Below are positions 3,647 through 32,556 of a DNA stretch of 64,000 bases, one piece after another; the first letter of the stretch is position 1; every line of letters starts with the position of its first letter. The translations under genes and the position numbers were made by a program. Location of the stretch: NCBI GenBank assembly GCA_030835135.1, contig JAUQWO010000076.1, positions 77,102-141,101 of the forward strand, in the 5' to 3' direction. A model generated the notes under the pieces. The model saw only the letters and a list, made by a program, of their open reading frames with translations. It searched no databases and was not told the origin of the DNA. This stretch comes from Bacteroidota bacterium. Lineage in GTDB: Bacteria; Bacteroidota; Ignavibacteria; UBA10030; UBA6906.

Positions 3647-3655
3647 CCAGGGAGA

Positions 3656-4045
3656 ATGACCATCATGGAAAAGTCCATCGACGTACGCGATCAACAGACG
3701 AACAGCGACACCGCCTATGACCGTTGCCGGATCCCCGCGGCGGATGTGTATGAAACGAGCGACGCCTTCGTGCTGATGCTCGATCTGCCGGGCGTGGTCA
3801 AGGAAGGGATCTCGCTGATTCACGAGAAAGGCGAATTGAAGGTCCGCGCGGTTGCCGCGGCCGGTCAGCCATCCGACATGAAGGTGCTGGTCCGCGAGGT
3901 GCGTCCGGCCACCTACTCCCGGACCTTCACGCTGGGAGACGGCATCGATACGGAGAGCATCGATGCGCGGTTCGACTCGGGTGTTTTGACCGTGAAATTG
4001 CTGAAGAGTGCGGCCTCCAGGTCGCGCGAGATCACCATCAATTAA
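3656..4045 (+). CDS. Hsp20 family small heat-shock protein (copy 2)
   Basis: DLPGV...GELKV alpha-crystallin core. Own ribosome-binding site (RBS). Confidence 0.8.
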   Translation: MTIMEKSIDVRDQQTNSDTAYDRCRIPAADVYETSDAFVLMLDLPGVVKEGISLIHEKGELKVRAVAAAGQPSDMKVLVREVRPATYSRTFTLGDGIDTESIDARFDSGVLTVKLLKSAASRSREITIN

Positions 4046-4075
4046 TACATACGTGAGAGAGAGGAGGAACCACCG

Positions 4076-4543
4076 ATGACACTGATGCGCTGGACACCAG
4101 CACGTGAACTTCCGACATTGCCGTCGGAGGTGTGGTCGATGCAGAGGGAGATCAACCGGATGTTCGACAACTTCTTCCGCGGCAACGCAGGAGAGGAAGC
4201 ACTGCAGATGCCGTCGTGGGACCCGGCCGTGGATGTGGCCGAGAACGACGATGCCTACGTGGTGAAAGTCGAACTCCCCGGTGTGAACCGGAACGATGTC
4301 AAGATCGTCGTTCAGGACCGCCAGCTCACCATCCGCGGGGAGAAGAAGCAGGAGAAGGATGCCCGGGAGGCGAACTACCACCGGATCGAGCGGAGTTATG
4401 GCGCCTTCCAGCGGACCTTCACGCTGCCGTCGGGTGTCAAATCCGACAAGATCGAAGCCGCTTACACCGATGGGATCCTGGCGGTCACCCTGCCCAAGGC
4501 CGAAGAAGCCAGAGCAAAGGAGATCGAGGTCCGGGTGAAGTGA
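4076..4543 (+). CDS. Hsp20 family small heat-shock protein (copy 3)
   Basis: VELPGVNRNDVKIVVQDRQLTIRGEKK with C-terminal I-x-V. RBS GAGAGGAGG. Confidence 0.85.
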   Translation: MTLMRWTPARELPTLPSEVWSMQREINRMFDNFFRGNAGEEALQMPSWDPAVDVAENDDAYVVKVELPGVNRNDVKIVVQDRQLTIRGEKKQEKDAREANYHRIERSYGAFQRTFTLPSGVKSDKIEAAYTDGILAVTLPKAEEARAKEIEVRVK

Positions 4544-4570
4544 CCCGGCAGTACCCCTCCGTTTCACCAG

Positions 4571-4610
4571 TGCAACAGGGCCCGCTCCGGCGGGCCCTGT
4601 TGCATTTCCG
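4571..4610 (+). terminator. rho-independent terminator after the sHSP cluster
   Basis: 15-bp perfect stem TGCAACAGGGCCCGC / GCGGGCCCTGTTGCA with loop TCCG, then a T-rich tail. Confidence 0.6.
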
Positions 4611-4690
4611 CACGTTTGTTGACTCTTTCTCGTTGTTTTATTATTATATTGTAAATCAACAACTTACAGCACCCTCCCGGGTCGGTCCCC

Positions 4691-5599
4691 ATGTCGAAAT
4701 CCACGAAGTGGTTCCTTGTCATCCTGGGCATTGTTCTCGTCACCGGCCTTCTCATCACCGTCGTTTTCGTCTCGATGCTCGGCACCATCGGGAGCGGCGG
4801 CACTGAGACGGTCACGACGGGATCGGGCGACAAGATCGGCGTGGTCGAACTCCAGGGCGTGATCACCTCGTCGGAGGAATTCGTCCGCCAGGTGAAGAAG
4901 TTCCGTGAGCAGTCCTCCATCCGCGCGATCCTCATCCGCATCGATTCGCCGGGTGGCGGAGTGGTGGCGAGTCAGGAAATGTATGAAGAAGTGCGCAAGA
5001 CCCGCGAGAGCGGCAAGCCCGTGGTGGTGTCGATGGGCTCTCTCGCGGCGAGTGGCGGGTACTATGTTGCCTGTGGCGCATCGCGGCTCGTGGCGAACCG
5101 CGGGACGCTCACCGGCAGCATCGGCGTGATCTCCGAGTTCCTGCAGATGCATGAATTGCTCGGGAAGGTCGGCGTGGACTTCAAGACGATCAAGTCGGGT
5201 GCCCTGAAGGACGCCGGTTCGTCCACGCGTCCGATGACGGAGAGAGACCAGCGGTATTTCCAGGCGCTCATGGACGACGTGCACCGGCAGTTCATGACGG
5301 TCGTTGCGGATGAGCGCGGGTTCGATTCGGCGTATGTCCGTGAACTGGCCGATGGCCGCGTGTACACGGGAGAGCAGGCGGTGGAGGTGGGGTTGGTGGA
5401 CACGATCGGGACCTATGAGGATGCGATCCAGATCACGGCGGAGATCGCGGGCATCGACGGTGAGCCGTCGCTGGTCCGGGAGAAGAAACGCCGCACATGG
5501 TTGGAGTCGATGACGGGTGATGTGACGGAGCAGGTGCGTGCCGCGACGCAGGAGATGTTGTCGTGGCCGGTGATGTCGTTCAGGTTCACGGGCCGGTAG
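4691..5599 (+). CDS. sppA: signal peptide peptidase SppA (36K type)
   Basis: N-terminal transmembrane (TM) helix, ClpP/crotonase-fold S49 peptidase. Includes IDSPGGGV and SLAASGGYY segments. Confidence 0.85.
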   Translation: MSKSTKWFLVILGIVLVTGLLITVVFVSMLGTIGSGGTETVTTGSGDKIGVVELQGVITSSEEFVRQVKKFREQSSIRAILIRIDSPGGGVVASQEMYEEVRKTRESGKPVVVSMGSLAASGGYYVACGASRLVANRGTLTGSIGVISEFLQMHELLGKVGVDFKTIKSGALKDAGSSTRPMTERDQRYFQALMDDVHRQFMTVVADERGFDSAYVRELADGRVYTGEQAVEVGLVDTIGTYEDAIQITAEIAGIDGEPSLVREKKRRTWLESMTGDVTEQVRAATQEMLSWPVMSFRFTGR

Positions 5600-5648
5600 G
5601 GAGCCCCGGGGTACGCGGGACAGACCAATCACTTCAGGAGGATCGGCG

Positions 5649-5948
5649 GTGACAAAAGCGGACATTGTGGATACGATTGCGACTGCCACCGGACTAACGA
5701 AGGTTGAGACCGAGGCGGTGGTGGACGGCTTCATTTCCACGGTCATCAATGCGCTGAAGGAAGGGAAGAACATCGAGATCCGCGGCTTCGGGAGTTACAA
5801 GGTGAAGAAGCGGAAGGGTCGTGTCGCGCGCAATCCGCGCACCGGCGAGCAGGTGATGGTGGACGAGCACTGGGTGCCATTGTTCAAGGTGTCCAAGGAA
5901 GTGAAGACGCTCGTCAATGAGAACATGAAGAAATCAGCACAGCCGTAA
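5649..5948 (+). CDS. HU family DNA-binding protein
   Basis: GTG start after GGAGGA. RGFGSYKVKKRKGRVARNPRTGE is the HU/IHF arm signature. 99 aa. Confidence 0.85.
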   Translation: MTKADIVDTIATATGLTKVETEAVVDGFISTVINALKEGKNIEIRGFGSYKVKKRKGRVARNPRTGEQVMVDEHWVPLFKVSKEVKTLVNENMKKSAQP

Positions 5949-5959
5949 GGGACGGGACG

Positions 5960-6817
5960 ATGGCGGAGGCGAAAGCGATCTGTGGCTCCTGTGGAGCCGG
6001 TGTCACATTCGGTGCGGAGCGGTGTTCTGCGTGCGGCGAGCGGTTGTCGTGGAGCGGCGGGGCACCGGCAGCGGGTGCCGGCAGGGCGTGCCTGACATGC
6101 GGCCAGTTGAATGAGCCGGGAGCGGCGACGTGTTCATCCTGCGGGGCGAAGCTCGGTGCGGCACACGGGCAACGGGGCGGTCAGCAGAAGAAGCAGGCCG
6201 CGCGTGAGGCGAAGCCGAAGCGTACGATCGAGCCATGGCAGATCATTGCGGTCGTGGCGATCCTTGCGCTGGTTGGCGTGCTTGCCTACGTGGAACTCGC
6301 GCGCGATCATGCCCCGGCGGCAGCGCCCGCGCAGGCCGCCGGTCCGATGACCATGCCGCCGATGATGCAGCAGCAGCCGGTGGTGGATATTGCCGCACTG
6401 GAAGCGGCCGTCAAGGCGAGTCCGAACGACCCGCAAGCCGTTCTGGCCCTGGCCAACGGTCTGCACGACAACGCCGACTATCTGCGCGCCGTGGAGGTGT
6501 ACGCGAAGTATTTGAAGACGCATCCCAAGGATCCTGATGCCCGGGTGGATATGGGTGTCTGTTATTATCAGCTCGGGATGCAGGACACCGTGAACACGGC
6601 GCGCTATTTCGCGCTGGCGATCACGGAGATGGAGGCCGCGGTGCGCGGCACGCCGACGCATCAGCCGGCGGCCTTCAATCTGGGTGTGGTCAACCTGCAG
6701 AAGGGCGATCTCGACGTATCGAACCGGTGGTTCCGCAAGGCGGTGGAGCTGGGTCCGACGACGGATCTCGGCACGAGGGCCCAGCGGATGCTGCAGCAAC
6801 ATTCATCTATTCCCTAA
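5960..6817 (+). CDS. membrane protein with an N-terminal double zinc-ribbon and a periplasmic TPR-like domain
   Basis: Two CxxC...CxxC pairs, one TM helix (WQIIAVVAILALVGVLAYV), and a TPR-like C-terminus. Confidence 0.5.
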   Translation: MAEAKAICGSCGAGVTFGAERCSACGERLSWSGGAPAAGAGRACLTCGQLNEPGAATCSSCGAKLGAAHGQRGGQQKKQAAREAKPKRTIEPWQIIAVVAILALVGVLAYVELARDHAPAAAPAQAAGPMTMPPMMQQQPVVDIAALEAAVKASPNDPQAVLALANGLHDNADYLRAVEVYAKYLKTHPKDPDARVDMGVCYYQLGMQDTVNTARYFALAITEMEAAVRGTPTHQPAAFNLGVVNLQKGDLDVSNRWFRKAVELGPTTDLGTRAQRMLQQHSSIP

Positions 6818-6839
6818 GTGAACGAAGAAAGGAGGCATC

Positions 6840-6935
6840 ATGCCCTGCGGTAAGAAGCGCAAGCGCCACAAGATGGCGACCCATAAGCGCAAGAAGCGGC
6901 TGAGAAAACAGCGCCACAAGAAGAAGCTCCGCTAG
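6840..6935 (+). CDS. 31-aa highly basic micro-protein, AURKAIP1/COX24 (mitoribosomal mS38 C-terminal domain)-like
   Basis: MPCGKKRKRHKMATHKRKKRLRKQRHKKKLR. The strong RBS AAAGGAGG sits 6 nt upstream. Absent from the ORF track because it is under 60 aa. A hairpin (7005-7023) follows. Confidence 0.45.
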   Translation: MPCGKKRKRHKMATHKRKKRLRKQRHKKKLR

Positions 6936-7082
6936 CGCCCGTCCGCTGGCTGATCGGCGCTGGACCCGGGCAGATGGTTTGCGCAGGGCGTGAACGGCAG
7001 GCAGGGGTCCCGGACCGGGACCCGCTGTCTGCAGGGTCTTCACGGCACATGCGCACCGCTGCCCGTTGAGGGTCCGGCGGCG

Positions 7083-7111
7083 TTGCATTTCGTTGTGGAT
7101 TGTACTATACT
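7083..7111 (+). promoter_or_regulatory. sigma70-like promoter TTGCAT-N17-TATACT
   Basis: Read directly 38 to 50 nt upstream of the ytxH-like start. Confidence 0.4.
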
Positions 7112-7160
7112 TTTTTTGTTCCCCACTCCACGTCTGTGTTCCATCAGGATGAGGCGTACT

Positions 7161-7556
7161 ATGACGAAGAACGAGGGCATGCTGAAGGGCCTGGTGATCG
7201 GCCTGCTCGCCGGCGGAGCCATCGGTGCCGTGGTCGCATTGCTGTATGCGCCCAAGAGCGGCCGTGAGCTGCGCGCGGACCTGAAGGAGAAGGCCGATGA
7301 GTTCCGTGATGATGCGGAAGAATACCTCACCGTCGCGCGTACGAAGGCCGGCGACATGGTGAGTGAGGCCAAGAAGCGCTCGGAAAGCCTGATCACCGAC
7401 GCGAAGCGGAAAGCCGATACGTTGCTGGTGGATGCAGAAAAAGTGTTGACCGACGCTCGCTCGAAGACCGGCTCGGTGGCGGAAGAAGCGTCGCGCGTGA
7501 AACACGCGATGAAGGCCGGCATGGATGCCTATAAAGAAGAGCGTCGCCGCTCCTGA
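7161..7556 (+). CDS. YtxH domain-containing protein
   Basis: GLLAGGAIGAVVALLYAPKSGRELR is the YtxH signature. Alternative ATG at 7149. The ORF-track N-terminus at 6990 is spurious (it spans the promoter). Confidence 0.6.
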   Translation: MTKNEGMLKGLVIGLLAGGAIGAVVALLYAPKSGRELRADLKEKADEFRDDAEEYLTVARTKAGDMVSEAKKRSESLITDAKRKADTLLVDAEKVLTDARSKTGSVAEEASRVKHAMKAGMDAYKEERRRS

Positions 7557-7586
7557 GCGGCCCCGCATGCGATCAAGGAGGAGTTT

Positions 7587-7973
7587 GTGGAACTCGCACT
7601 CAACCTAGCCCAGATCATCGCTCTGCTCTGTCTGTCTGCCCTCTGTATCTACATGATCGTCGTCCTGCTGCGGCTCCGTGATGTCATCACCAGCCTGGAG
7701 AAGGACGTGAAGGAGATCACCACCCGCGCCATCCCTGTTCTCGACAATATGGAGTACATCACCACGCGGGTGAAGAGCATCACCGACAATATCGATGACC
7801 AGGTGGCCGCGGTCCGCGAATCCATCGGGTCCATCAGGGCCATTGCTGACAATGTTGTGGACCTCGAGCGGCGCGTCCAGGAACGCATCGAGGGACCGAT
7901 CCTGGAGACCGTCGGTTTCGTTGCCGCGGTCTTCAAAGGTGTACGGACTTTTTTTGACCGCGTCCGCATCTGA
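7587..7973 (+). CDS. DUF948 domain-containing membrane protein
   Basis: GTG start after AAGGAGGAG. N-terminal TM helix plus coiled-coil, typical of the DUF948 partner of YtxH. Confidence 0.55.
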   Translation: MELALNLAQIIALLCLSALCIYMIVVLLRLRDVITSLEKDVKEITTRAIPVLDNMEYITTRVKSITDNIDDQVAAVRESIGSIRAIADNVVDLERRVQERIEGPILETVGFVAAVFKGVRTFFDRVRI

Positions 7974-8177
7974 CGTGCCGGCGTCCCACGCCGTCTGACC
8001 GGCACACCATGCCTGCGGAGAGCCGCAGTATGCACGGTGGCCGCTCCCGCCCGCGGTAGCGACCAGCGTGTCCCCGTGGTTCCCCTTGCGTGAACACTGT
8101 TCTGTCCCAACCACCGCCGCCACAGTCCCCGCGGACTGTTCTCGCCGGCGTTTCAGACTGGAGGATCCAGAGACCCC

Positions 8178-10271
8178 ATGAAGGAATATACACCCGATCA
8201 CATTCGCAACGTGAGCCTCATCGGCCATGGCGGGGCCGGTAAAACGATGACCGCCGAAGCACTCCTGTTCTCTGCCGGCGCAACGACGCGCCTCGGCCGT
8301 GTCGAGGAAGGGAATACCGTCTCCGATTATCGCGCCGATGAGATCGAACGCCGCATCTCCGTCAGCAGCTCTCTGCTCAACTGCGAATGGAAAGGCACCA
8401 AGATCAATATCCTCGATACGCCCGGGTACACCGACTTCACCGGCGACGTGAAGGCCTCCCTGCGGGTGACCGATACCGCGCTGCTCCTGGTGAAGGCCGT
8501 GGAAGGCGTCGAGGTGGGGACCGAGATCGTGTGGCGGTACACGCAGGAGTACCAGAACAGCGTGGTGCTCATCATGAACAAACTGGACCAGGAGAACGCG
8601 GACTTCGACCGTGTGCTGGCCCAGGCCCGCGAGAATCTCAGCCACGACATCGTGCCGTTGCAGTTCCCGCTGAAACAGGGGCTCGGCTTCGATAGCATCG
8701 TGGACGTGATCCGGATGAAGGTGCTGAAGTATACCCCGGGCGCGAACGGCAAGTTCACCGAGGAAGAGATCCCCGCCGCTGCCCAGGCACGTGCCCAGGA
8801 ATTCCGCCAGCAGGTGCTGGAGGTGATCGCGGAAACGGATGAGAACCTCCTGAACACCTACCTCGAGAAAGGCACCCTGGCACCCGAGGAGATCAAGGCC
8901 GGACTCAAGACCGGTATCCGTCAGCGCAAACTCTTCCCGCTCGTCTGCGTGTCGTCCACGCAGAACATCGGACTGTCCGCCCTGCTCGATGCACTCATCG
9001 ATTTTGCGCCGGGCCCGGTGGAACGCGGACCGGTGGACGCGAAGGAAGGCGACAAGGAGCTGAAGGTCGCGCAGGACCCCGCCGGCCTCCCGTCCCTGTT
9101 CGTGTTCAAAGCCGTGTCCGAATCGCACGTGGGCGAACTCTCCCTCTTCCGGGTGTTCAGCGGCACGGTGGCCCCCGGTCTGGATATGGTCAACGCCCAC
9201 AACGGAAAACCGGAACGCCTTGCGCAGCTGTTCGTGATGTCGGGCAAGGACCGCAAGGAGATCGGTCATCTGATGGCGGGCGATCTGGGCGCGGTGGTGA
9301 AGCTCAAGGATACCCACCCGAACGACACGCTCAGCGGCAAGGCCCACACGCTGACCTATCCGCCGATCGTATTCCCCGAGTCCGTCTTTAATATGGCCGT
9401 CGTCCCCCGGTCGAAGGGAGATGAGGACAAGATCTCGACCGGTCTGCATGCGATGCATCAGGAAGACCCGACGTTCCAGTTCCGCGTGGACGGCGAGCTC
9501 CATCAGACGATCGTGAGCGGTCAGGGCGAAGTGCATCTGGACATGATGGTGAAGCGTCTGAAGGCCCGGTACAACGTCGAGGTGGACCTCGTGGAGCCGC
9601 GTGTGCCGTACCGCGAGACCATCAAGGCGGTGGTGAAGGATGTGGAGTACAAGCACAAGAAGCAGACGGGCGGTCACGGCCAGTACGGCCACGTCCACCT
9701 GCGCATCGAGCCGCTGAAGCGCGGTCAGGGGTTCGAGTTCCTCGACGAGATCGTGGGCGGTGTCGTGCCCAACAAATTCATCCCGGCCGTGGAGAAGGGC
9801 GTTGTCGAGTGCATGAAGGAGGGCGTCGTCGCGGGCTATCCGGTGGTCGATGTGCGCGTGGCGCTGCACTACGGATCGTACCACGACGTGGATTCCTCGG
9901 AAATGGCGTTCAAGCTTGCGGCGTCGCAGGCATTCCGGAAGGGCTTCATGGAAGCCAAGCCGATCCTGCTCGAGCCGATCTATAATATCGAAGTGCGCGT
10001 CCCCGAGGATGCGATGGGTGACGTGATGGGCGATATCTCGTCGCGGCGTGGCAAGATCGCCGGCATGGATTCGGAAGGCCGGTATCAGGTCATCCGCGCC
10101 GCGATCCCGGCGGCGGAGATCCACCGCTACGCCACGGTGCTGCGTTCGATGACCGGCGGGCGTGGCGTGTATCATGCCAGCATGTCGCATTACGAGGAAG
10201 TGCCGCGCGAACAGGCGGAGAAGGTCATCGCTGCCTCGGAGAAGAACAAGCATAAAGAAGCGGAAGCCTGA
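8178..10271 (+). CDS. elongation factor G paralog (EF-G2-like translational GTPase)
   Basis: Five-domain EF-G architecture, 697 aa. Atypical G1 motif GHGGAGKT, as in Thermus EF-G2. Confidence 0.8.
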   Translation: MKEYTPDHIRNVSLIGHGGAGKTMTAEALLFSAGATTRLGRVEEGNTVSDYRADEIERRISVSSSLLNCEWKGTKINILDTPGYTDFTGDVKASLRVTDTALLLVKAVEGVEVGTEIVWRYTQEYQNSVVLIMNKLDQENADFDRVLAQARENLSHDIVPLQFPLKQGLGFDSIVDVIRMKVLKYTPGANGKFTEEEIPAAAQARAQEFRQQVLEVIAETDENLLNTYLEKGTLAPEEIKAGLKTGIRQRKLFPLVCVSSTQNIGLSALLDALIDFAPGPVERGPVDAKEGDKELKVAQDPAGLPSLFVFKAVSESHVGELSLFRVFSGTVAPGLDMVNAHNGKPERLAQLFVMSGKDRKEIGHLMAGDLGAVVKLKDTHPNDTLSGKAHTLTYPPIVFPESVFNMAVVPRSKGDEDKISTGLHAMHQEDPTFQFRVDGELHQTIVSGQGEVHLDMMVKRLKARYNVEVDLVEPRVPYRETIKAVVKDVEYKHKKQTGGHGQYGHVHLRIEPLKRGQGFEFLDEIVGGVVPNKFIPAVEKGVVECMKEGVVAGYPVVDVRVALHYGSYHDVDSSEMAFKLAASQAFRKGFMEAKPILLEPIYNIEVRVPEDAMGDVMGDISSRRGKIAGMDSEGRYQVIRAAIPAAEIHRYATVLRSMTGGRGVYHASMSHYEEVPREQAEKVIAASEKNKHKEAEA

Positions 10272-10278
10272 GCCACCG

Positions 10279-10797
10279 ATGGAGCGCATGTGGTCACCGT
10301 GGCGGTCACAGTACATCGCCACCTTCAAGAAGAAGCCTGCAAAGAAGAAGCGGTCACGCGTCAGCCTCTTTGCGGCAGCCCTGAAGGCGAAGGATGATGA
10401 CCGCCACCTGATCGTATGGCGCGGGAAACGCTGCTTCGTCATTATGAACCGCTATCCGTACAATAGCGGCCACCTCATGGTTGTCCCGAACCGGCAGACA
10501 GCGGATGTGCAGTCGCTGACCGGGGAGGAACTTGCCGAGATCATGCAGACCGTCCAGCGCTCGATCCGGGCGCTGGACGATGTCATGCATCCCCAGGGGT
10601 ACAACTTCGGAACGAACATCGGACGGGTGAGCGGGGCCGGCGTTGCCGACCACATCCATTTTCATGTCGTCCCGCGCTGGAACGGCGATACGAATTTCAT
10701 GCCCGTCCTGGCCGATACCAAAGTGATCTCCGAAGACATGCGGGATACCCTCACAAAGCTTCGAAAATCCTTCGCAAAGACCGCTCGTGGCGGTTAA
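10279..10797 (+). CDS. HIT family hydrolase
   Basis: HIHFHVVPR histidine triad. The ORF-track N-terminus (10162) overlaps EF-G and is spurious. Confidence 0.8.
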   Translation: MERMWSPWRSQYIATFKKKPAKKKRSRVSLFAAALKAKDDDRHLIVWRGKRCFVIMNRYPYNSGHLMVVPNRQTADVQSLTGEELAEIMQTVQRSIRALDDVMHPQGYNFGTNIGRVSGAGVADHIHFHVVPRWNGDTNFMPVLADTKVISEDMRDTLTKLRKSFAKTARGG

Positions 10798-10814
10798 ACG
10801 ACTCTTCGTGCAAG

Positions 10815-11384
10815 GTGTCTAAGGGTATGGAACAGCTCACGGACCTTGACCTGGTGAATGAGGTGCGTGCGGGCGATCGCCGTGCGTACACCGAGCTCAT
10901 GAACCGGTACAAGGAGAAGATCTACTGGGTGGCCCGGCGCATGCTGGGGAACCATGCCGATGCCGACGATGTCGTGCAGGAGGCGTTCCTCAAGGCGTTC
11001 CTGAACCTGGGCGACTTCCGTGGCGATGCCGGGTTCTATACCTGGTTGTACCGGATCGCGGTCAACCTGTCGCTCAATGCCCTGCGGAAGCGCCATGTGA
11101 TGGACTACCTCAGGGAAAGCGAGCTGGCGCAGAAGGTCTTTCCGCCGGCGAAGGATGACCCGCACAAAGAGCTGGAGGTCCGGGAGCTCGAATCCCGGAT
11201 CCAGCAGGCGGTGTCCAGGCTGCCCGACAAGCAGCGCGCGGTGTTCGTACTGCGCTACTATGATGAAATGACGTATGAAGAGATCGCCTTCATCCTGAAG
11301 ACATCCGTGGGAGGATTGAAGGCGAACTATTTCCATGCACTGCGGAAGGTCCAGAGGTCGTTGAAACATGCGCTTACGGTTTGA
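10815..11384 (+). CDS. RNA polymerase ECF-type sigma factor
   Basis: Region 2 and region 4 are present (DDVVQEAFLKAF; YDEMTYEEIAFILKTSVGGLK). Confidence 0.85.
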   Translation: MSKGMEQLTDLDLVNEVRAGDRRAYTELMNRYKEKIYWVARRMLGNHADADDVVQEAFLKAFLNLGDFRGDAGFYTWLYRIAVNLSLNALRKRHVMDYLRESELAQKVFPPAKDDPHKELEVRELESRIQQAVSRLPDKQRAVFVLRYYDEMTYEEIAFILKTSVGGLKANYFHALRKVQRSLKHALTV

Positions 11385-11892
11385 CAAACGTCAGCCGACG
11401 GACGCCGAGGAGGAATCTCTCCAGCGTGCGTTGCAGGCGGAAGTGGCCAACGATCCGCCCTCGCCGGCGCCGACGGCGGCCTACTGGCAGAACCTGCCGG
11501 TCCGCGTGAATGCGGTCATCGATGACGCGACCAGCGGCCGGGCACTCTCGCTGAGCTGGGCGGCACGCGTGGCGATCCCCGGGATCGTGGCGGTGCTCTC
11601 GTTCCTGATCGGGTTGAATTACTATGCTCCGGATCGGGGAGGGGCCGTGCGATCGTTCCGTGACGTGGCGATGGCGATGCCTCCGTCGGCCGTGGATTCG
11701 TTGTACGTGGCTTCCCTGGCTTCCGGGGATACCGCGTTCGTGGGCGGACTGGAGACGGATCTCCTGCGCCTGCCGTCGGATCTGGCGCGCGAGTACTATG
11801 TTGAGAACGGCAGTACCTCGACGCTGGTGGAGGACCTCTCCGACCAGGAGGTGCGCGAGGTCCTCGCCGTCCTGAGTTCGAATATCAAATAG
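11368..11892 (+). CDS. putative anti-sigma factor (single-pass membrane protein)
   Basis: Overlaps the sigma-factor stop. One TM helix. No recognisable catalytic domain. The call rests on position. Confidence 0.4.
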   Translation: MRLRFDKRQPTDAEEESLQRALQAEVANDPPSPAPTAAYWQNLPVRVNAVIDDATSGRALSLSWAARVAIPGIVAVLSFLIGLNYYAPDRGGAVRSFRDVAMAMPPSAVDSLYVASLASGDTAFVGGLETDLLRLPSDLAREYYVENGSTSTLVEDLSDQEVREVLAVLSSNIK

Positions 11893-11906
11893 AGGAGTAT
11901 GCAACC

Positions 11907-12383
11907 ATGCGCACGGGGATGATGATCGCACTGGTGCTGGGACTGCTGGCGGTGCAGGCACAGGCCCAGCCAGGCCGTCCGGGAGATCCGCGGTTCGAGC
12001 GCGTTGAACAGCTGCGCAAGGTGCGGATGATCGACGAGCTCGGGCTGAAAGAGGAACAATCCGTGCGCTTCTTCGCACGGCTCAGCGAGTTTGACAAGCG
12101 GCGCCGTGATCTGATGCATGAGCGGCATGAGATGCTCAACAAGCTCGAGCAGATGATCAAGGACAATGCCGACGAGAAAGAGCTGGAGAAGATGTTCCCC
12201 GTCATGGCCGGCCTCGAGCAGCGCATGGCTGAGGAGAAGGCCAGGTTCTTTGCGAGCCTGTCGGACGTCCTGAGCGTGCAGCAACGTGCGAAACTGCTGA
12301 CGTTCGAGCGCACGTTCGAGAAGGAGTTGCGGGAAGCTGTGCGCGACACCCAGCGGCGGCGGATGCGGACGGAAGAGCAATAA
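11907..12383 (+). CDS. periplasmic Spy/CpxP-like (LTxxQ-type) stress protein
   Basis: Signal peptide ...AQAQA|QPGR. Helical and charged, with repeated E/K/R and LxxxQ-like segments. Third gene of the ECF module. Confidence 0.5.
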   Translation: MRTGMMIALVLGLLAVQAQAQPGRPGDPRFERVEQLRKVRMIDELGLKEEQSVRFFARLSEFDKRRRDLMHERHEMLNKLEQMIKDNADEKELEKMFPVMAGLEQRMAEEKARFFASLSDVLSVQQRAKLLTFERTFEKELREAVRDTQRRRMRTEEQ

Positions 12384-12410
12384 GCCATCATGCGTTTTGT
12401 GCGATTTTGA

Positions 12411-12445
12411 GGGCATTCGGGAGCCATTCCGGGTGCCCTTTTTCT
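12411..12445 (+). terminator. rho-independent terminator after the ECF module
   Basis: GGGCATTCGG / CCGGGTGCCC stem (2 G.U pairs), then TTTTT. Confidence 0.5.
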
Positions 12446-12860
12446 ATATTGGCCCAATTCCCAAATTTGGATGGACATTCCTAATTGTAAAAATCCTTCG
12501 AGCACTTCTGTTGAATATGTCAACATGTGCGATTGACTTCCTGCTGCTCCCCGAATCAGAATCTCAATATTTGGTCCAATTTCGCGGTTTGCTGAGAATA
12601 TTTACAACTGCGACCTTTCGTAGATGTGTGGCACAAGTGTTGACTCATAAAAGACGCTGTAGACAGTTTCACCTCCACGTTCATTTCCATCTCCCTTCGC
12701 ATTCGGACCAGCCGAGAAGACTCAGTCCATGATCCTGCATCATTCGTGTAGCGTACCGTAGGGCGGCTGGGGTAGCATCACGAAGGGGTGAAGAAAGAGT
12801 GTCGGATAGCGTGGATCGGGTCTTCTCATTTCAACTTAACACAACAAGAGAGGTAGCGCC

Positions 12861-15008
12861 ATGAAGCGTTTGATTCCTGTTTTCGGCGTGTTACTCGTAT
12901 TTGCTCTCGTGCTCGCGCCGGTGTTCGACGCGACCGCGCAGGTCAAGGTCAAGAAGATCGGCCGGTCGTTGAATCAGATGACCCTGCCGGTGAAGGGTTC
13001 TCCCGCCCCCGCGTGGAATATCTCCACGGGTCTCCGGGCGGTCGGTACCAAGAGCAGAGCATATTGGACCGTTGATACTGTTGGTTCCGCACAGGTCGGG
13101 ACCCCGACGTGGGCGATCGTCAGCAAGCCGGCCGGTTCGGCCGCGACGCTGGACAGCGCCAACGGCACGTGGATCAACAGCGTAAAGGTTGACACCGTCG
13201 GTGAATACATCGTGAGCGCGCAGGTCGGGACGCAGACCGCGTACGACACCATCTGGGCGAGCACGTACCAGGGTGTTGCCACCGATGCGAACGCTGGCTG
13301 CTTCTGCCATCCAAGCGCCACGACCATCAAGACCGCCTGGGAGAAGTCGGTGCACGGCACGATGTTCTTCCGCGGTATGACCGGTCATGAAGAGATGGAA
13401 CGCGGCAAGGGTGCGTATGCCGCCGGCTGCATCAAGTGCCACGTTACCGGTTGGGATCCGACCGCTGCGAACAACAACTTCGGTATCAAGGTGAAGCAGT
13501 CCGGTTGGGACACCACCTGGTACAAGGGCCTGGAATCCTACGCGGGCGACTACTGGATCACCACGGGTGACAGTGCGAAGTGGAATCTTCTTACCGCAGA
13601 CGAGAAGAAGCTGGCGAACATCGGATGCGAGCAGTGCCACGGACCGGCCCAGGCCCACGCGACATCGGCCCAGGCTAGCCGGATCGGCATGAACAAGTAT
13701 CAGCCGGACATGTGCAACCAGTGCCACGACGGTTCGCGCCGTCATAGCCTGGGTACCTTCTTCGCCAACTCCGGTCACTACCAGATGCACTATGGCGCAG
13801 CTGCTGAAGGTGGCCGCTCGAACTGCCAGCCCTGCCATACCGGCGCCGGCCTTTCGTACTACCTGAACAACAACATGGACACCACCGGCCTCGCGGCCAA
13901 GTGGGTCCTTGCACGCGACGCCAAGACCCCGATCAGCTGCCAGGTCTGCCACGACCCGCACGGCAACGACAACGAGTATGCACTCCGCACGATGTCGCTG
14001 AAGGGCGATTCGCTGAAGGGTGGCTATGTGATCCCGGCCCAGTTCCGTCAGAGCGCCGGTAACATCTGCATGGTGTGCCATGGTGGCCGCTACGCCGTGA
14101 AGGCACGCATCACCACCACCGCACCGTACTACGGCTGGGCAGACCGCTTCTATCCGCACTACAACACGCAGGGCGAAATGTACTTCGGCGCCGGCGCATA
14201 TCAGTACGGTGACGACAGCTTCACGGGCCTCATGACCCACGGTGGTGTGGAAGGTTCCTGCACGGGCTGCCACATGCAGAAGCGCAAGAACCGTCTCGAT
14301 GGCGGCGGGAACATGCTTGCCAACCACTCGTTCAGCATGAGCGATACCATGTTCGCAACGGGTGTGTACAAGCCGACCGACGCGTGCGCCCCGTGCCACG
14401 GCGAGATCGAAGACTTCGATGACATCCGCGCTCTCTACGACTACGACCGCGATGGCGCGATCGAAGGCGTGCAGTCGGAGGTCGATGGTCTGCTCGCAGC
14501 GCTGAAGGCAAAGCTGCCGGTCGATGCAACCACCGGCAACCCGGTCACCATGCGCAAGGACTCCCTGGCGGTGAAGAACCGTCCGGACCTCATCCAGGGC
14601 ATCTGGAACTGGTACTTCGTGTATGAAGACCGGTCGCGTGGCGTCCACAATACGAAGTATGCGGTCCGTATTCTGTACAAGGCCCTCGGCTGGACCCCGC
14701 TCGCGGTCGAAGCGACCGAAGGCATGCCGACCGAGTTCGGTCTGAACCAGAACTACCCGAACCCCTTCAACCCGACCACCAGCATCAGCTTCGCGATGCC
14801 GAAGGACGGCCATGTGCTCCTGCAGGTGTACGATGTGACGGGTGCACTGGTGAAGACGCTCGTCGATCAGACCATGCGCGCCGGCAACATGCAGGCGACG
14901 TGGGATGGCACGAACCTCTCCGGGAACAAGGTTGCCAGCGGCGTGTATCTCTATCGCATGGCGGCAGGCGACTTCGTTGCGGCAAAGAAGATGGTTCTCA
15001 TGAAGTAA
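12861..15008 (+). CDS. octaheme c-type cytochrome with a T9SS (Por) C-terminal sorting domain
   Basis: Signal peptide (cleavage ATA|Q). Eight CxxCH motifs (CIKCH, CEQCH, CNQCH, CQPCH, CQVCH, CMVCH, CTGCH, CAPCH). C-terminal NYPNPFNPTTSISF...GVYLYRM...KK matches the T9SS C-terminal domain (CTD) pattern. Confidence 0.8.
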   Translation: MKRLIPVFGVLLVFALVLAPVFDATAQVKVKKIGRSLNQMTLPVKGSPAPAWNISTGLRAVGTKSRAYWTVDTVGSAQVGTPTWAIVSKPAGSAATLDSANGTWINSVKVDTVGEYIVSAQVGTQTAYDTIWASTYQGVATDANAGCFCHPSATTIKTAWEKSVHGTMFFRGMTGHEEMERGKGAYAAGCIKCHVTGWDPTAANNNFGIKVKQSGWDTTWYKGLESYAGDYWITTGDSAKWNLLTADEKKLANIGCEQCHGPAQAHATSAQASRIGMNKYQPDMCNQCHDGSRRHSLGTFFANSGHYQMHYGAAAEGGRSNCQPCHTGAGLSYYLNNNMDTTGLAAKWVLARDAKTPISCQVCHDPHGNDNEYALRTMSLKGDSLKGGYVIPAQFRQSAGNICMVCHGGRYAVKARITTTAPYYGWADRFYPHYNTQGEMYFGAGAYQYGDDSFTGLMTHGGVEGSCTGCHMQKRKNRLDGGGNMLANHSFSMSDTMFATGVYKPTDACAPCHGEIEDFDDIRALYDYDRDGAIEGVQSEVDGLLAALKAKLPVDATTGNPVTMRKDSLAVKNRPDLIQGIWNWYFVYEDRSRGVHNTKYAVRILYKALGWTPLAVEATEGMPTEFGLNQNYPNPFNPTTSISFAMPKDGHVLLQVYDVTGALVKTLVDQTMRAGNMQATWDGTNLSGNKVASGVYLYRMAAGDFVAAKKMVLMK

Positions 15009-15036: not shown

Positions 15037-15080
15037 GGCCGGGGCAGGTGACAGCAGTCGCCTGCCCCGGCCCTTTTTGT
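15037..15080 (+). terminator. rho-independent terminator after the cytochrome gene
   Basis: GGCCGGGGCAGG / CCTGCCCCGGCC 12-bp stem, then CTTTTTGT. A smaller hairpin lies at 15009-15027. Confidence 0.6.
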
Positions 15081-15086
15081 GAAAGG

Positions 15087-17216
15087 GTGCCCGTGCCCCT
15101 GTTCTGCCGTGTGATCCTTGTCCTGATGCTCGCCCTGAGCACACTGACCGCTGCTGCGCTCTCTGCGGACCATCCGCACCAGCGGCAATGCGGCACACTC
15201 CCGCCACCCGGGCTTCTCCGCACAGCCGATGCCACCGGCGGCATCTATCTCCCTTCCGCCGGCGTCCTCCGCATCCTGATCGTCTTCGCCAGCTTCCCTG
15301 ACGACACCACTGCCCATGCTTCTTGGCCTGCGCGCCAGGCACCGTTGTTCATGAACAGCTTCATCGATCCCGATACGCTCACGCGTTCGACCGGCCCTTT
15401 CAACCTGACGCACTACTTCCGCCAGATGTCGCTCGGGAAGCTCCACGTCATCGGCGATGCCATCTGGGTGGAATCGCAACACTCGCAGGAGGAGTACCGC
15501 GCGAGCGGTTCGTACGGGGCCGCGAACATGGCGATCATCCCGGAATCCGTCGATCCGGTCGTCGATTTCTCGCACTACGACAATTGGACCCGTACCGGCA
15601 ACTACACGCACGTGAATGCGCCGGACAGCATCGTGGACATGGTGCTGATGGTCTGGCGGACGACGATGTGGGGATATCTCGGCGAGGCATCGCTGGGCTA
15701 CAAGCCCGCGATCGCGGCGGATGGCAAACGCATCGCGATGGGGTACCCCGCATACGTTCCGATGCCGCTCGGCTCCGGGGTGACGTGCGAGTACCCGTAC
15801 GGCGACACTCCTGTGCGTGTGATGCGCACCATGGTCCACGAACTGAGCCACTGGCTCCTCGGCATCTTCCACCCCTACAACGGATCCAAACCAGACGGCA
15901 AGTTCCAGTACTGGGGCATGCTGTGCAACGGCGAACGGATGTCCGGCTGTGCGAATACCTACGACCGCGAGTTGCTCGGGTGGATCACGCCACGCGTGGT
16001 GGAGTCGCCCGCCACGATCACCCTCGGCGACTTCATCACGACCGGCGATGCGGCGAAGTTTCATCCCGCCGGCGGTGCTCCCGACGAATACCTCTATCTC
16101 GAGAACCACCAGGGGATCTCGGTGTTCGACGATGTCACGTCGGAACCCGGAGACCATGGCGTGTGGCTCCTGCACCAGCAGGGGCCGTACATCGAGATGG
16201 ACAACCTCCGGATACTCCCTGCTGATGGTCTGTGGCAGTGGACCGCAGCCTGGCCGGCGACGTCATGCTTCGGCGCTGCGGTGCCGGTCTATGCGCGCGG
16301 GACACCGGATATCATCATCGGTCTGTCGCACCGCGATCAGATCCCGACACCCGCCAGTCTGGTGCAGTGGATGCTTGCGTACAGGAACGGATCGGGCGAT
16401 GTGAGTTGCGGTCTTCACTTCGCGGGATCAGGTTTCCGCGGTGCATTTGATACGGCAGGAGTGCGCGTGTTCTCGGCCTCCAGCAACCCTGCCGCACGCA
16501 CGTGGGCGGGAGGGTCCGCGGGGCTGGCGTTCGAGGTCACCGCATGTTCCGGCAGCTCGGTGACAGTGTCCATTCCTGCTGATCCCCTGGCACTCTCTCC
16601 GGCCCGGCGGCATCTCGGTGTGCCGTCCGGCGATCCCCCCGGTCGCGTGCTGACCCTCGCCTGGGGATCGCAGTGGGCGTCCGGCCCCTCCCTCGAGACC
16701 GATGTCGTGTGGTCGGAACTCCAGCGCATCGTCGGGCCGGGAGATGTCTGGACCACCATCTTTGCCGGCGCCGCGTTCACCTTCGGCGACTCCAGCCTGA
16801 TCTATGACTCCACCGGGACCATCCCTGTGCGCTTCCGGGTGCGCGTGCGCGATGCCGGGGGGAGATACTCGGCCTGGTCGGAAGAACACCGGTCCAGGGC
16901 AGCCAGCATGACCGGTGCAGCCCTCTCAGGCATGCCGGACGATCGTGTAGTACTGTGCAACTATCCCAATCCGTTCAATCCTGCGACCTCGATCGCATTC
17001 TCCGTGCCTGTCGCGGGGTGGACGAGCGTGGTCGTCATGGATGTGCTGGGGAGGGTCGTCAGGGAATTGCAGCATGGCCCTTCGGCGGCCGGACAGCATC
17101 TGCTCCGGTGGGATGGCAAGGATGGTCGGGGAGAACCCGTCGCCGCCGGGGTGTACCTCTGCCGGCTCTCCGCCGGACCCATCGTGCGTACGCACACCAT
17201 GCTGCTGTTGAAATGA
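15087..17216 (+). CDS. secreted HExxH zinc metallopeptidase (M6/immune-inhibitor-A-like?) with a T9SS C-terminal sorting domain
   Basis: Start moved downstream of the terminator (GTG 15087, or 15093/15126). MVHELSHWLLG is the HExxH motif. C-terminus YPNPFNPATSIAF...GVYLCRL matches the T9SS CTD. Confidence 0.6.
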   Translation: MPVPLFCRVILVLMLALSTLTAAALSADHPHQRQCGTLPPPGLLRTADATGGIYLPSAGVLRILIVFASFPDDTTAHASWPARQAPLFMNSFIDPDTLTRSTGPFNLTHYFRQMSLGKLHVIGDAIWVESQHSQEEYRASGSYGAANMAIIPESVDPVVDFSHYDNWTRTGNYTHVNAPDSIVDMVLMVWRTTMWGYLGEASLGYKPAIAADGKRIAMGYPAYVPMPLGSGVTCEYPYGDTPVRVMRTMVHELSHWLLGIFHPYNGSKPDGKFQYWGMLCNGERMSGCANTYDRELLGWITPRVVESPATITLGDFITTGDAAKFHPAGGAPDEYLYLENHQGISVFDDVTSEPGDHGVWLLHQQGPYIEMDNLRILPADGLWQWTAAWPATSCFGAAVPVYARGTPDIIIGLSHRDQIPTPASLVQWMLAYRNGSGDVSCGLHFAGSGFRGAFDTAGVRVFSASSNPAARTWAGGSAGLAFEVTACSGSSVTVSIPADPLALSPARRHLGVPSGDPPGRVLTLAWGSQWASGPSLETDVVWSELQRIVGPGDVWTTIFAGAAFTFGDSSLIYDSTGTIPVRFRVRVRDAGGRYSAWSEEHRSRAASMTGAALSGMPDDRVVLCNYPNPFNPATSIAFSVPVAGWTSVVVMDVLGRVVRELQHGPSAAGQHLLRWDGKDGRGEPVAAGVYLCRLSAGPIVRTHTMLLLK

Positions 17217-22411: not shown

Positions 22412-22768
22412 ATGCGGGAGGTCATCATGTTCTGTCCCGAGTGCAAAGCCGAGTATGTTGATGGCGTCACCACCTGCGCGGGATGCGGTGTCCCGCTCGT
22501 TGCCACGCTTCCTGCGGAACCCGACCATTCCGGTGAGGGCATGGTCCGCGTCCTCACCACCTTCAATGCCGGCGATATCGCCATCGTGGAATCGATCCTC
22601 GACGGGACCGACATCGAGTACTTCATTCACGGCAAGAATTTCAATCAACTGGAACCTCTGGTGCAGCCGGCGCATCTCTACGTTGCGCGGCATCAGGTGA
22701 ATGCGGTCAAGGAGCTTCTGGAACCCGTGCAACTCCGGTTCCTGGGCGTCACGCAGGCCGAGGAGTAA
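22412..22768 (+). CDS. zinc-ribbon plus DUF2007-like (PII-fold) small protein
   Basis: CPECK...CAGCG zinc ribbon, then a roughly 70-aa alpha/beta domain. Confidence 0.35.
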   Translation: MREVIMFCPECKAEYVDGVTTCAGCGVPLVATLPAEPDHSGEGMVRVLTTFNAGDIAIVESILDGTDIEYFIHGKNFNQLEPLVQPAHLYVARHQVNAVKELLEPVQLRFLGVTQAEE

Positions 22769-32546: not shown

Positions 32547-32556
32547 CCGGTGGTTG

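Follow-up and report, generated by a model that had tools for sequence, protein, structure and literature searches.

A putative type IX secretion cargo with a predicted nonahaem, OcwA/OmhA-type domain in Ignavibacteria-like bacteria

Introduction

Most of what is understood about the mechanism of extracellular electron transfer comes from Shewanella, Geobacter and a handful of Gram-positive bacteria. In Shewanella, the outer-surface decahaem lipoproteins MtrC and OmcA, which have a staggered-cross fold, are placed by type II secretion. Among Gram-positive organisms, the closest described systems to the protein considered here are OmhA of Carboxydothermus ferrireducens (PDB 6QVM), an S-layer cytochrome that is undecahaem because of an N-terminal two-haem extension, and OcwA of Thermincola potens JR (PDB 6I5B), an experimentally characterised nonahaem terminal reductase of the cell surface (PMC6703420). 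Proteins of the OcwA/OmhA type, which form clade 3 of the NrfA/c554 superfamily, combine a cytochrome c554-like module that carries four haems with an NrfA-like one that carries five, and they have a short bundle of helices in addition.

In genome-resolved studies, Ignavibacteria are among the abundant organisms of anode biofilms, with many multihaem cytochromes as well as porin-cytochrome-like clusters (PMC7399161). Type IX secretion system (T9SS) genes are possibly present in Ignavibacteriota (PMC11285876). Our full-text literature searches returned no description of a T9SS-sorted multihaem or c-type cytochrome, in line with an earlier sequence-only reading of this locus, which had considered such proteins essentially uncharacterised; nor are secretion and sorting mentioned in the paper on Melioribacter respiration. 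Classical type-A cargo of the T9SS (e.g. mirolase, RgpB and NucA) is known to consist mainly of hydrolases, proteases and adhesins, whereas the candidate cargo described here is a multihaem protein that is predicted to be loaded with its cofactors. Here we report on the gene for this protein and its surroundings in a 64-kb stretch of DNA, referred to below as the window.

Results

Architecture of the protein and its haem sites

The cytochrome gene (12861..15008, on the plus strand, as are all features below that are given as start..end) starts at an ATG with the ribosome-binding site AAGAGAGG 7 nt 5' of it and encodes a protein of 715 aa. By inspection of the sequence, residues 1-26 (12861..12938) were assigned as a Sec signal peptide, in which MKR is followed by a hydrophobic stretch and by a predicted cleavage site between ATA and Q. 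Its consensus, DAxAQ, is kept in an alignment of 51 homologues with A26 near-invariant, and the N-terminal Gln that cleavage would leave agrees with the Q-rule that has been reported from Ignavibacterium album (PMC5837995). Residues 29-134 (12945..13262) form a predicted beta-sandwich domain of the Ig/PKD-like kind, with strands only in the AF2 model (pLDDT 73-96 per 10-residue block), and at the position of this domain relatives match a K319L-like PKD model. The multihaem domain follows at residues 140-615 (13278..14705), comprising a c554-like module, an NrfA-like module and short C-terminal helices.

The signal peptide, the eight CxxCH motifs and the single CFCH that the sequence-only reading had listed are all present in the open reading frame, as judged by inspection and motif count. 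The eight canonical motifs (residues 190, 256, 285, 322, 360, 403, 467 and 509) occupy the block 13428..14399, with first bases at 13428 (CIKCH, site 2), 13626 (CEQCH, site 3), 13713 (CNQCH, site 4), 13824 (CQPCH, site 5), 13938 (CQVCH, site 6), 14067 (CMVCH, site 7), 14259 (CTGCH, site 8) and 14385 (CAPCH, site 9). All 18 cysteines of the protein lie within the haem motifs, and since shuffled sequences contained on average 0.0125 CxxCH, with a maximum of 1, the pattern is far above chance. Sites 2-9 were invariant across the 51-homologue alignment.

Site 1 is the contracted motif CFCH (residues 147-150; 13299..13310), and its C147, C149 and H150 were likewise invariant among the 51 homologues. 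Across the family, the corresponding columns of homologues read CxCH, CxxCH, Cx3CH, Cx4CH, Cx5CH or Cx7CH. It thus has both of the properties that we took to define a contracted motif, namely a conserved C-x-C-H and, in homologues, a canonical site at the equivalent position. In more distant members of the family all nine motifs are canonical CxxCH. The confidence of the AF2 model at this site was only ~68. Given this conservation, the motif most likely represents a ninth site, with predicted haem occupancy, and for that reason the cytochrome is probably better called nonahaem than octahaem, the latter being the label that it had been given before. In 2019 Ferousi and co-workers reportedly described a contracted CXCH haem-binding motif in a tetrahaem cytochrome of Kuenenia stuttgartiensis (J Biol Chem 294:16953). 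That protein is unrelated to the present one, but in both cases a C-x-C-H occurs in a multihaem protein at a place where relatives have a normal site; the series of spacings at a single site (Cx1, Cx2, Cx3, Cx4, Cx5 and Cx7), compared with the Kuenenia motif, is a feature of the present family. A contracted motif that is functional in haem binding is reported in work cited in PMC11492766.

Assignment of the haem domain to the OcwA/OmhA type

Both by predicted fold and by profile, the top matches of the haem domain were OcwA and OmhA, and its similarity to this type exceeded that to the other clades of the superfamily. From profile and model comparisons, we therefore assign the protein as a cytochrome of the OcwA/OmhA type with nine predicted haem sites. 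In the profile alignment, eight of the nine sites matched OcwA motifs in the same order: seven of the eight CxxCH align to OcwA motifs, the exception being CIKCH (site 2), which the aligned stretches do not cover, and site 1 has a weak match (1.6 bits) to the haem-1 motif of OcwA, while its region also aligns to residues 8-71 of cytochrome c554. The nine sites thus appear collinear with those of OcwA. The histidine of the distal pocket at haem 2 of OcwA corresponds to H295, which is kept in 50 of 51 sequences (pocket R/K/H294-H295).

OcwA belongs to a Gram-positive host, where it is located on the cell wall, shares only ~25% sequence identity with the present protein, has a canonical CKTCH at site 1 in place of CxCH, and lacks both the N-terminal Ig/PKD domain and the C-terminal sorting domain found here. 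In OcwA, moreover, a His-His pair lies above each of the five-coordinate haems 2 and 5, whereas the haem-5 pair aligns here to F430-Y/G431, that is Phe-Tyr/Gly, and the two proteins may therefore have different ligand sets. OmhA, also from a Gram-positive cell, likewise has no sorting domain.

A comparison with the octahaem families had been proposed for this protein. The nine-site fold and profile of the OcwA/OmhA type rule out an octahaem identity of the HAO, ONR or Otr kind, and the diagnostic motifs of ONR (CxxCK at haem 4) and MccA (CX15CH at haem 8) were not found. The pentahaem NrfA and the octahaem ONR are, in addition, periplasmic enzymes with other haem numbers and without a sorting domain. 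There is a Pfam Cytochrom_C552 match at residues 459-613, but an identity as NrfA was rejected: a motif search of the whole protein found no CxxCK, with CWNCK of NrfA aligning to CQPCH; the NrfA segment CHVEYY, which follows haem 3 and carries Ca/Tyr active-site residues, is replaced by CHGGRY (family consensus CHxSRY); and OcwA and OmhA outranked both NrfA and ONR. Many members of the family are to be found under annotations that hide them, such as 'T9SS type A sorting domain-containing protein', 'hypothetical protein' or the misleading 'nitrite reductase', and NCBI names some homologues 'ammonia-forming cytochrome c nitrite reductase'.

The C-terminal sorting domain and its distribution

Residues 630-715 (14748..15005; NYPNPFNP ... 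GVYLYR ... KKMVLMK-COOH) were assigned as a T9SS type-A C-terminal sorting domain (CTD), as the sequence-only reading had proposed. Residues 632-712 scored above the cutoffs of both TIGR04183 (31.3 bits; cutoff 23) and PF18962 (28.2 bits; cutoff 27), and the predicted fold, an Ig-like beta-sandwich, matches the solved structures of T9SS CTDs, one of them in its translocon-bound state. Within the homologue alignment the domain is strictly C-terminal, ends in a conserved KKMxLLK-COOH and has invariant NYPNPF, GxY and K motifs. It could have been an annotation artefact if close homologues lacked it; since 118 of 120 homologues carry it, at identities down to 39%, it is not. On the same residues, however, the FlgD_ig model PF13860 outscores the CTD models (39 bits versus 28 for PF18962), and FlgD structures fit the predicted fold about as well as CTDs do. 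Taken together, the profile matches, conservation and predicted fold identify the domain as a bona fide type-A sorting domain.

A search with the haem module yielded 1314 cluster representatives at E<=1e-3. Among the best 150 of these (about E<=1e-30), a CTD is present in roughly half, and 6 of 10 representatives scanned from the rest of the 150 have TSP3, PKD or CarboxypepD_reg, domains that we regard as typical of extracellular proteins. Peptidases encoded in the window have the same C-terminal tail, which a pattern match also located in many genomes of the FCB group. Close relatives are represented by the assemblies GCA_016707525.1 (91% identity) and GCA_026129445.1. A scan of genome contigs, dominated by QNYPNPFN, returned mostly unrelated CTD proteins, and only three of the loci (L001-L003) were true relatives.

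Transcription signals upstream of the gene

Upstream lies an operon consisting of an ECF sigma gene (10815-11384), an overlapping open reading frame in the anti-sigma position (11368-11892; no family match) and a gene for a Spy/CpxP-like protein (11907-12383). It is closed by a terminator-like hairpin with a T-run (12409..12440; a 14-bp stem followed by TTTCTATATT) located 26 nt after the stop of the last of these genes. The 477-bp intergenic region that contains the hairpin (12384-12860) has a GC content of 47.6%, compared with 62.3% for the window.

Within this region there is a sigma-54-like -24/-12 element, TGGCAC-N5-TTG (12629..12642), with a predicted transcription start near 12655. The pattern TGGCA(C/T)-N5-TTG was invariant in all eight upstream regions compared from the clade (those of the window, of six relatives' loci and of a second tandem paralogue in locus L086), in which ~0.02 chance matches would be expected as estimated from the measured match rate. 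The base that follows TTG can be A, G or C, and because the canonical conserved C at -12 is missing, the assignment to sigma-54 is one that we infer. Further upstream are two direct repeats, TTCCCAAATTTGGA and TTCCTAATTGTAAAA, ~21 bp apart (12458..12493), that could act as an enhancer (UAS) for an activator of sigma-54. They form invariant columns in an alignment of seven orthologous upstream regions, in all of which 160-172 bp separate the first repeat from the TGGCAC downstream of it (171-172 bp in five), while the distance from promoter to ATG varies from 124 to 243 bp; no other tandem motif of this kind occurs in the window. A second site of the TGGCA(C/T)-N5-TTG type precedes HSP20 genes, and no gene for rpoN or a sigma-54 activator was found in the 64 kb. 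Judged from these conserved elements, the cytochrome gene appears to be transcribed from its own sigma-54-like promoter, with the enhancer-like repeat lying upstream.

The transcript may also have a structured 5' leader (12711..12830), for which RNAalifold, with four sequences only, predicted a long closing helix formed by GCCGAGAAGACTC and GGGTCTTCTC, in which column pairs 84/190 and 92/182 show compensatory changes. L083, L086 and L088 have lost the element through deletion, and no Rfam family matched it, a speF hit of 13 bits falling below the gathering score of 37.

The ECF module adjoins the cytochrome gene at eight of nine places in the clade (the window and seven relatives), the exception being L083. 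It had earlier been suggested that the block is an ECF-regulated surface-redox unit. With a terminator-like hairpin in between and a sigma-54-like promoter that is conserved at the cytochrome gene, control by the ECF sigma factor was rejected as the primary reading and is held to be improbable, and the suggestion is not supported in spite of this adjacency.

The downstream peptidase and the wider surroundings

Directly 3' of the cytochrome stop is a strong intrinsic terminator or attenuator (15037..15072), with a 16-bp stem containing 13 G-C pairs followed by CTTTTTG and a folding energy of -50 kcal/mol (z -5.7). An equivalent hairpin follows the cytochrome gene in all seven related loci. The next gene (15093..17216) encodes a zinc metallopeptidase of the M6/InhA-like kind, having both the HExxH zinc site and the InhA-like fold together with FN3-like domains and a CTD of the T9SS type, and it stays adjacent to the cytochrome gene across the clade, which bears out the earlier description of a T9SS metalloprotease at this position. 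The longest open reading frame would start at GTG 15048; this start was rejected because it lies inside the terminator stem, and 15093 matches a deposited protein of 707 aa.

Besides the cytochrome, two further CTD proteins are encoded in the window. No T9SS machinery gene was identified there, the match of a barrel protein (30041-31798, minus strand) to PorV/PorQ being 42 bits and below the cutoff of 90. Neither the window nor the genes adjoining close orthologues include another cytochrome or a conduit, there is no nrfH-like partner adjoining the cytochrome gene, and the surrounding genes in the window have housekeeping functions that give no hint of a substrate. One related locus is of a different kind: in L003, a CTD-bearing homologue with 30% identity is part of a porin-cytochrome-like cluster, together with a barrel-like protein of ~395 aa, cytochromes with 12 and 14 haems and a membrane-anchored NapC/NirT-like cytochrome.

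Discussion

The reading that we favour, by a little over even chances, is that the protein is a nine-haem cytochrome of the OcwA/OmhA type that is exported by the T9SS and acts as an extracellular terminal redox protein. Transcription would start at the dedicated sigma-54-like promoter and mostly stop at the strong terminator after the cytochrome gene, with read-through supplying the downstream M6/InhA-like peptidase. The protein would be exported by Sec and cut by signal peptidase I between ATA and Q, and in the periplasm nine haems would be attached, the first of them to the contracted CFCH. The T9SS translocon would then recognise the folded holoprotein through its CTD and move it across the outer membrane, where the CTD would be removed and the cytochrome either anchored at the surface or released. 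Outside the cell it may exchange electrons with extracellular or insoluble substrates, for which Fe(III)/Mn(IV) minerals, humics, flavins and electrodes are candidates, with soluble N-oxides as possible side substrates, as for OcwA. Electrons would reach it through a separate outer-membrane conduit encoded elsewhere than in the window. Both surface export and extracellular electron transfer are steps that we infer from the domains present.

An unlikely possibility is that the protein is a secreted or surface enzyme that serves detoxification or respiration of a soluble substrate, such as nitrite, hydroxylamine, NO, sulfite, tetrathionate or peroxide, and is not an electron outlet to solids. 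Its fold within the NrfA/ONR superfamily, the Cytochrom_C552 match, the nitrite reductase names of some homologues and the conserved distal histidine at haem 2 are all consistent with such an enzyme, as are the slow reduction of nitrite and hydroxylamine by OcwA and the control of NO and nitrogen responses by known sigma-54 activators; against it are the two NrfA motifs that are missing or altered, the ranking of OcwA and OmhA above NrfA and ONR, and the lack of an adjacent nrfH-like partner. As an enzyme beyond the outer membrane would still need a supply of electrons, this explanation overlaps with that of an extracellular terminal redox protein. Considerably less probable is an ordinary periplasmic electron carrier or reductase whose C-terminal domain is merely an Ig-like, FlgD-type module with a structural or adhesive role. 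The higher score of PF13860, the fit of FlgD structures and the failure to identify a T9SS core gene among those of the window would agree with this. The same domain, however, exceeds the curated cutoffs of two CTD models, keeps a strictly C-terminal position with its invariant motifs and conserved end, and recurs on the window's peptidases and across many FCB-group genomes, and CTD-less relatives carry other domains of the extracellular kind.

We give a similarly small chance to electron flow in the reverse direction, in which the extracellular donor would be Fe(II), a cathode or another cell acting as partner, or to a reduction of Fe(III) for iron acquisition only. Multihaem chains are reversible in principle, OcwA both oxidises and reduces hydroxylamine, and nothing in the window fixes the direction, but OcwA and OmhA, which among characterised proteins are its nearest relatives, come from Fe(III) reducers and have been described as reductases.

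For the favoured reading of T9SS export to the outside of the cell, MtrC and OmcA offer a parallel in logic, in that a holo-cytochrome folded in the periplasm uses a general secretion system to cross the outer membrane and is fed by a conduit, the latter being proposed here. Their fold is unrelated to that of the present protein, relatives of which gave only weak matches to Pfam MtrC/MtrF domains, and they are lipoproteins delivered by type II secretion, in contrast to the T9SS proposed here. The sequence-only reading had argued for a mechanism of electron transfer unlike that of the Mtr/Omc/Pil conduits. The haem module is of the OcwA/OmhA type, known from Gram-positive surface reductases, and is therefore not a new mechanism; what differs is the proposed delivery route. 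The fusion of an OcwA-type haem protein to a T9SS tag suggests an externalisation route in Ignavibacteria-like bacteria that has not been described. A bolder version, which we hold tentatively and at somewhat less than even chances, is that the T9SS is a dedicated route for installing an OcwA-type nonahaem terminal reductase on the surface of a large Ignavibacteria-like clade of the FCB group, with covalent anchoring to a surface glycolipid after CTD cleavage, a feed from a porin-cytochrome conduit and processing or release by the M6 peptidase all being possible.

For research on haem maturation, the family provides a single predicted attachment site that spans CxCH to Cx7CH. If export of the cytochrome by the T9SS is true, it would be a third independent way to externalise respiratory cytochromes, after type II-secreted lipoproteins and Gram-positive wall or S-layer anchoring, and it would extend the known range of T9SS cargo to a cofactor-loaded respiratory protein. 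The surface redox proteins of Ignavibacteria are uncharacterised, and this family is a concrete and testable candidate for their missing outer component.

The cytochrome gene and its haem-binding sites

The open reading frame at 12861-15008 (+), with a GC3 of 0.81 that is typical for genes of this 62% GC window, encodes a 715-aa cytochrome with CxxCH motifs at residues 190, 256, 285, 322, 360, 403, 467 and 509 and a CFCH motif at residue 147 (window 13299-13310, +). All 18 cysteines of the protein fall inside these nine haem motifs, and CxxCH arose by chance at a mean of 0.0125 in shuffles of the same protein. By inspection, the N-terminus (MKR, a hydrophobic core and ATA/Q) appears to be a signal peptidase I substrate, and cleavage would expose a Gln, in keeping with the Q-rule described for Ignavibacterium album (PMC5837995).

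The sequence-only reading had described an octahaem cytochrome carrying a T9SS sorting domain (CTD). The reading frame, the eight CxxCH motifs, the CFCH motif and the CTD were all borne out, but the count of eight haems probably was not, since nine haems are the most likely number. In an alignment of 51 homologues, C147, C149 and H150 were invariant. Across 120 homologues, the closer relatives carried CxCH at site 1, where x can be F, I, M, V, G, A, Y, S or L, and many of the more distant ones carried canonical CxxCH and therefore have nine CxxCH motifs; further homologues had Cx3CH, Cx4CH, Cx5CH or Cx7CH at the corresponding columns. Ferousi and colleagues reportedly described, in 2019, a contracted but functional haem-binding motif in a Kuenenia multihaem cytochrome (cited in PMC11492766). 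When compared with OcwA, the nonahaem surface reductase of Thermincola, seven of the eight CxxCH motifs aligned with OcwA motifs in conserved order, CIKCH (site 2) lay outside the aligned stretches, and the alignment of site 1 with the first OcwA motif (CKTCH) was weak on its own (1.6 bits). The family also provides, at one attachment site around residue 147, a natural series of Cys-Cys spacings of 1, 2, 3, 4, 5 or 7 residues in which Cys, Cys and His stay constant.

Relationship of the haem domain to known cytochromes

The best matches to a profile of the 51 homologues were OcwA of Thermincola potens (6I5B, E 1.7e-16) and OmhA, the undecahaem S-layer cytochrome of Carboxydothermus ferrireducens (6QVM, E 2.8e-14), with NrfA ranking below them (2e-12) and octahaem nitrite reductases at 1e-4 to 1e-5. 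In the N-terminal haem part, query residues 142-200 aligned to residues 8-71 of cytochrome c554. OcwA is found on the surface of a Gram-positive bacterium that reduces electrodes and iron. By superposition, haems 1-4 of OcwA match those of c554 and haems 5-9 those of NrfA, and the protein also has slow activity on nitrite and hydroxylamine (PMC6703420). Within clade 3 of the superfamily shared with NrfA and c554, OcwA and OmhA make up the "cell-surface" pair (PMC9250108).

Some of the homologues bear the database name "nitrite reductase c552". A search of the protein for CxxCK found none, and CHGGRY stands where NrfA has CHVEYY, so that the protein lacks both of these NrfA features and we regard the names as over-annotations. 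The His overlying the open haem 2 of OcwA corresponds to H295, which is kept in 50 of the 51 sequences (the adjoining position 294 is His in 11), and the His-His pair overlying haem 5 of OcwA aligns to Phe-Tyr/Gly in this family.

The T9SS sorting domain

Residues 632-712 scored 31.3 bits against TIGR04183 (cutoff 23) and 28.2 bits against PF18962 (cutoff 27), placing the proposed CTD above both thresholds. N631, P633, N634, P635, F636, G694, Y696, Y698, K710 and K715 were invariant in the 51-sequence alignment. The domain is not an annotation artefact absent from close homologues: 114 of the 120 passed a strict motif test, four more missed on regex detail only, and the tail was missing from two, apparently by truncation, one stopping mid-domain and the other having an unrelated C-terminus. 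The same residues scored higher on PF13860 (FlgD_ig) than on the CTD models. Given that the domain stands strictly at the C-terminus and closes with KKMxLLK-COOH, we read this match as an overlap of Ig-like models.

Two further CTD proteins are encoded in the window: an M6-like peptidase (15093-17216, +) and an M1 aminopeptidase with a type-A CTD (32338-34554, +; TIGR04183 31.3 bits). The latter gene is divergent from an adjoining gene (30041-31798, -) for a 585-aa outer-membrane barrel-like protein with sub-threshold PorV/PorQ, PorP/SprF and TraF_2 matches. According to published work, Ignavibacteriota may possess T9SSs (PMC11285876).

Genomic context and candidate promoter

The surroundings pointed out in the sequence-only reading are real. 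An ECF sigma gene (10815-11384), an overlapping ORF in the anti-sigma position without a family match (11368-11892) and a gene for a Spy/CpxP-like periplasmic protein (11907-12383) precede a 477-bp intergenic region of 47.6% GC (window, 62.3%), and the metallopeptidase-like gene with its own CTD follows. The window and seven related places, with cytochromes 43-91% identical to that of the window, have a common gene order of S49 peptidase, HU, TPR protein, YtxH, DUF948, EF-G, HIT, ECF sigma, anti-sigma, Spy-like, cytochrome, M6-like peptidase, NifS, (Ppx), PrmA and M28. Housekeeping genes predominate in this order, which therefore resembles lineage synteny more than a functional cluster. At one locus (L083, cytochrome 59% identical) the upstream genes differ and the M6-like gene still adjoins.

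The proposal that the ECF module drives the block is opposed by three features: a terminator-like hairpin after the Spy-like gene (12409-12440), a sigma-54-like element of the cytochrome gene's own (12629-12642) and repeats upstream of that element. The element, TGGCA(C/T)-N5-TTG, is invariant in the upstream alignment, being found before the cytochrome gene in the window, at six related loci and at the second tandem paralogue of locus L086, and fits the sigma-54 -24/-12 consensus save for a variable C at -12. Its chance rate was ~0.77 matches per 64-kb window on both strands, and therefore an estimated ~0.02 would be expected in the eight upstream regions. Upstream of it are two direct repeats (TTCYCA...) ~21 bp apart, a tandem motif with a single occurrence in the window. 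The first repeat lies 160-172 bp from the TGGCAC element in 7/7 regions (171-172 bp in five), a near constant spacing, while the promoter-to-ATG distance varies from 124 to 243 bp. Enhancers for sigma-54 activators are laid out in this way, which makes the repeats a candidate enhancer; no rpoN or sigma-54 activator gene was found within the 64-kb window.

Other elements were also noted. The cytochrome leader (12711-12830, +) may form a fold of ~120 nt closed by GCCGAGAAGACTC and GGGTCTTCTC, with compensatory changes in the related loci L084 and L082 (four sequences only); it was absent from L083, L086 and L088 and matched no Rfam family. A second sigma-54-like element, TGGCACGCCGATTGAA (3124-3137, +), lies ~63 nt before an ATG at 3200 that opens three tandem small ORFs (3146-3646, 3656-4045 and 4076-4543), which correspond by synteny to three HSP20 genes of related locus L081, and a palindrome, TGGCATGACAATATGCCA (~3033-3054), lies ~80 bp further upstream. 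Elsewhere, a small ORF (22412-22768, +) had a weak N-terminal match to the "zinc ribbon-containing (seleno)protein DG" model (28.6 bits, cutoff 130), and 42185-46078 (+) encodes a sensor histidine kinase that is very large at 1297 aa. The kinase has single-Cache, HAMP, HisKA and HATPase domains, and no response regulator was found among the adjacent predicted ORFs.

The M6-like neighbour

The cytochrome stop codon is followed by a hairpin that has a G+C-rich stem of 16 bp and a T-run (15037-15072; -50 kcal/mol, z -5.7), and an equivalent hairpin was present 3' of the gene in every related locus examined. The deposited 707-aa neighbour begins with the GTG at 15093, only ~14 nt beyond the T-run, and a promoter apparently has no room there; expression of the peptidase therefore probably depends on read-through or on a promoter within the cytochrome gene. 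HExxHWLLGxxHPY was invariant in 40/40 homologues of the peptidase, and its zinc site therefore looks intact; the protein scored below the TIGR03296 cutoff, and the JGI name for the family is "M6 family metalloprotease-like protein". Thirty cytochrome/M6-like homologue pairs were taken as same-contig by proxy (matching longest-contig sizes), and at L085 and L087, where the cytochrome homologues are more distant, the peptidase was missing. It may process or release the cytochrome, or merely be co-localised cargo.

Distribution and possible function

The closest named relatives are from MAGs labelled "Ignavibacteriae bacterium" or "Bacteroidetes bacterium". When the haem domain alone was scanned against 1.84 billion cluster representatives, 1314 matches were obtained at E<=1e-3, 633 at 1e-10 and 149 at 1e-30. 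Among the best 150 of the 1314, 126 were near full length, of which 64 had the CTD motif, and six of ten Pfam-scanned relatives without a CTD had bacterial TSP3 repeats, PKD domains or an N-terminal CarboxypepD_reg (proteins P0297, P0301, P0314, P0330, P0338 and P0285), domains that in our judgement are characteristic of extracellular proteins. Different lineages thus seem to have joined the nine-haem module to differing extracellular or surface-type domains, which supports an extracellular role for it, short of proof. Many CTD-less relatives also have recurring C-terminal ends, such as ...FYRV... or ...DVPGATLR, and L086 has two tandem paralogues (8001-12882), each with nine CxxCH motifs, a CTD, a sigma-54-like element and a terminator hairpin of its own.

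A possible electron-transfer context was seen at L003, a locus with a 923-aa CTD-bearing homologue (9857-12628; 30% identity, nine CxxCH, PKD-like N-terminus). The cluster (~3100-14202) comprises a protein of ~395 aa that has a signal peptide, ends in ...HITFRW and is barrel-like by inspection (ORF end 4307), a 12-haem cytochrome (4326-5210), a 14-haem cytochrome (5233-6597), three intervening ORFs, the CTD homologue and, directly after it, a membrane-anchored cytochrome (12703-14202) with a NapC/NirT match and two membrane helices predicted by inspection. It resembles a set of quinol oxidase in the inner membrane, conduit of the porin-cytochrome type and cytochrome at the surface, the layout expected if the CTD protein were outermost in an extracellular electron-transfer chain. 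This support is guilt by association from one distant genome, and such cytochrome or conduit neighbours were found neither in the window nor in close relatives.

OcwA-type modules, T9SS CTDs, contracted haem motifs and sigma-54 promoters are each already known, and a full-text literature search found no description of the four together. We are highly confident that the cytochrome is an OcwA/OmhA-type multihaem protein with a genuine type-A CTD, and it is probably exported by a T9SS. As to what it does in the cell's physiology, we consider extracellular electron transfer and soluble-substrate turnover evenly balanced, and the chain as a whole, in which an OcwA/OmhA-type protein with a CTD would be exported by a T9SS and serve extracellular electron transfer, we hold to be slightly favoured.
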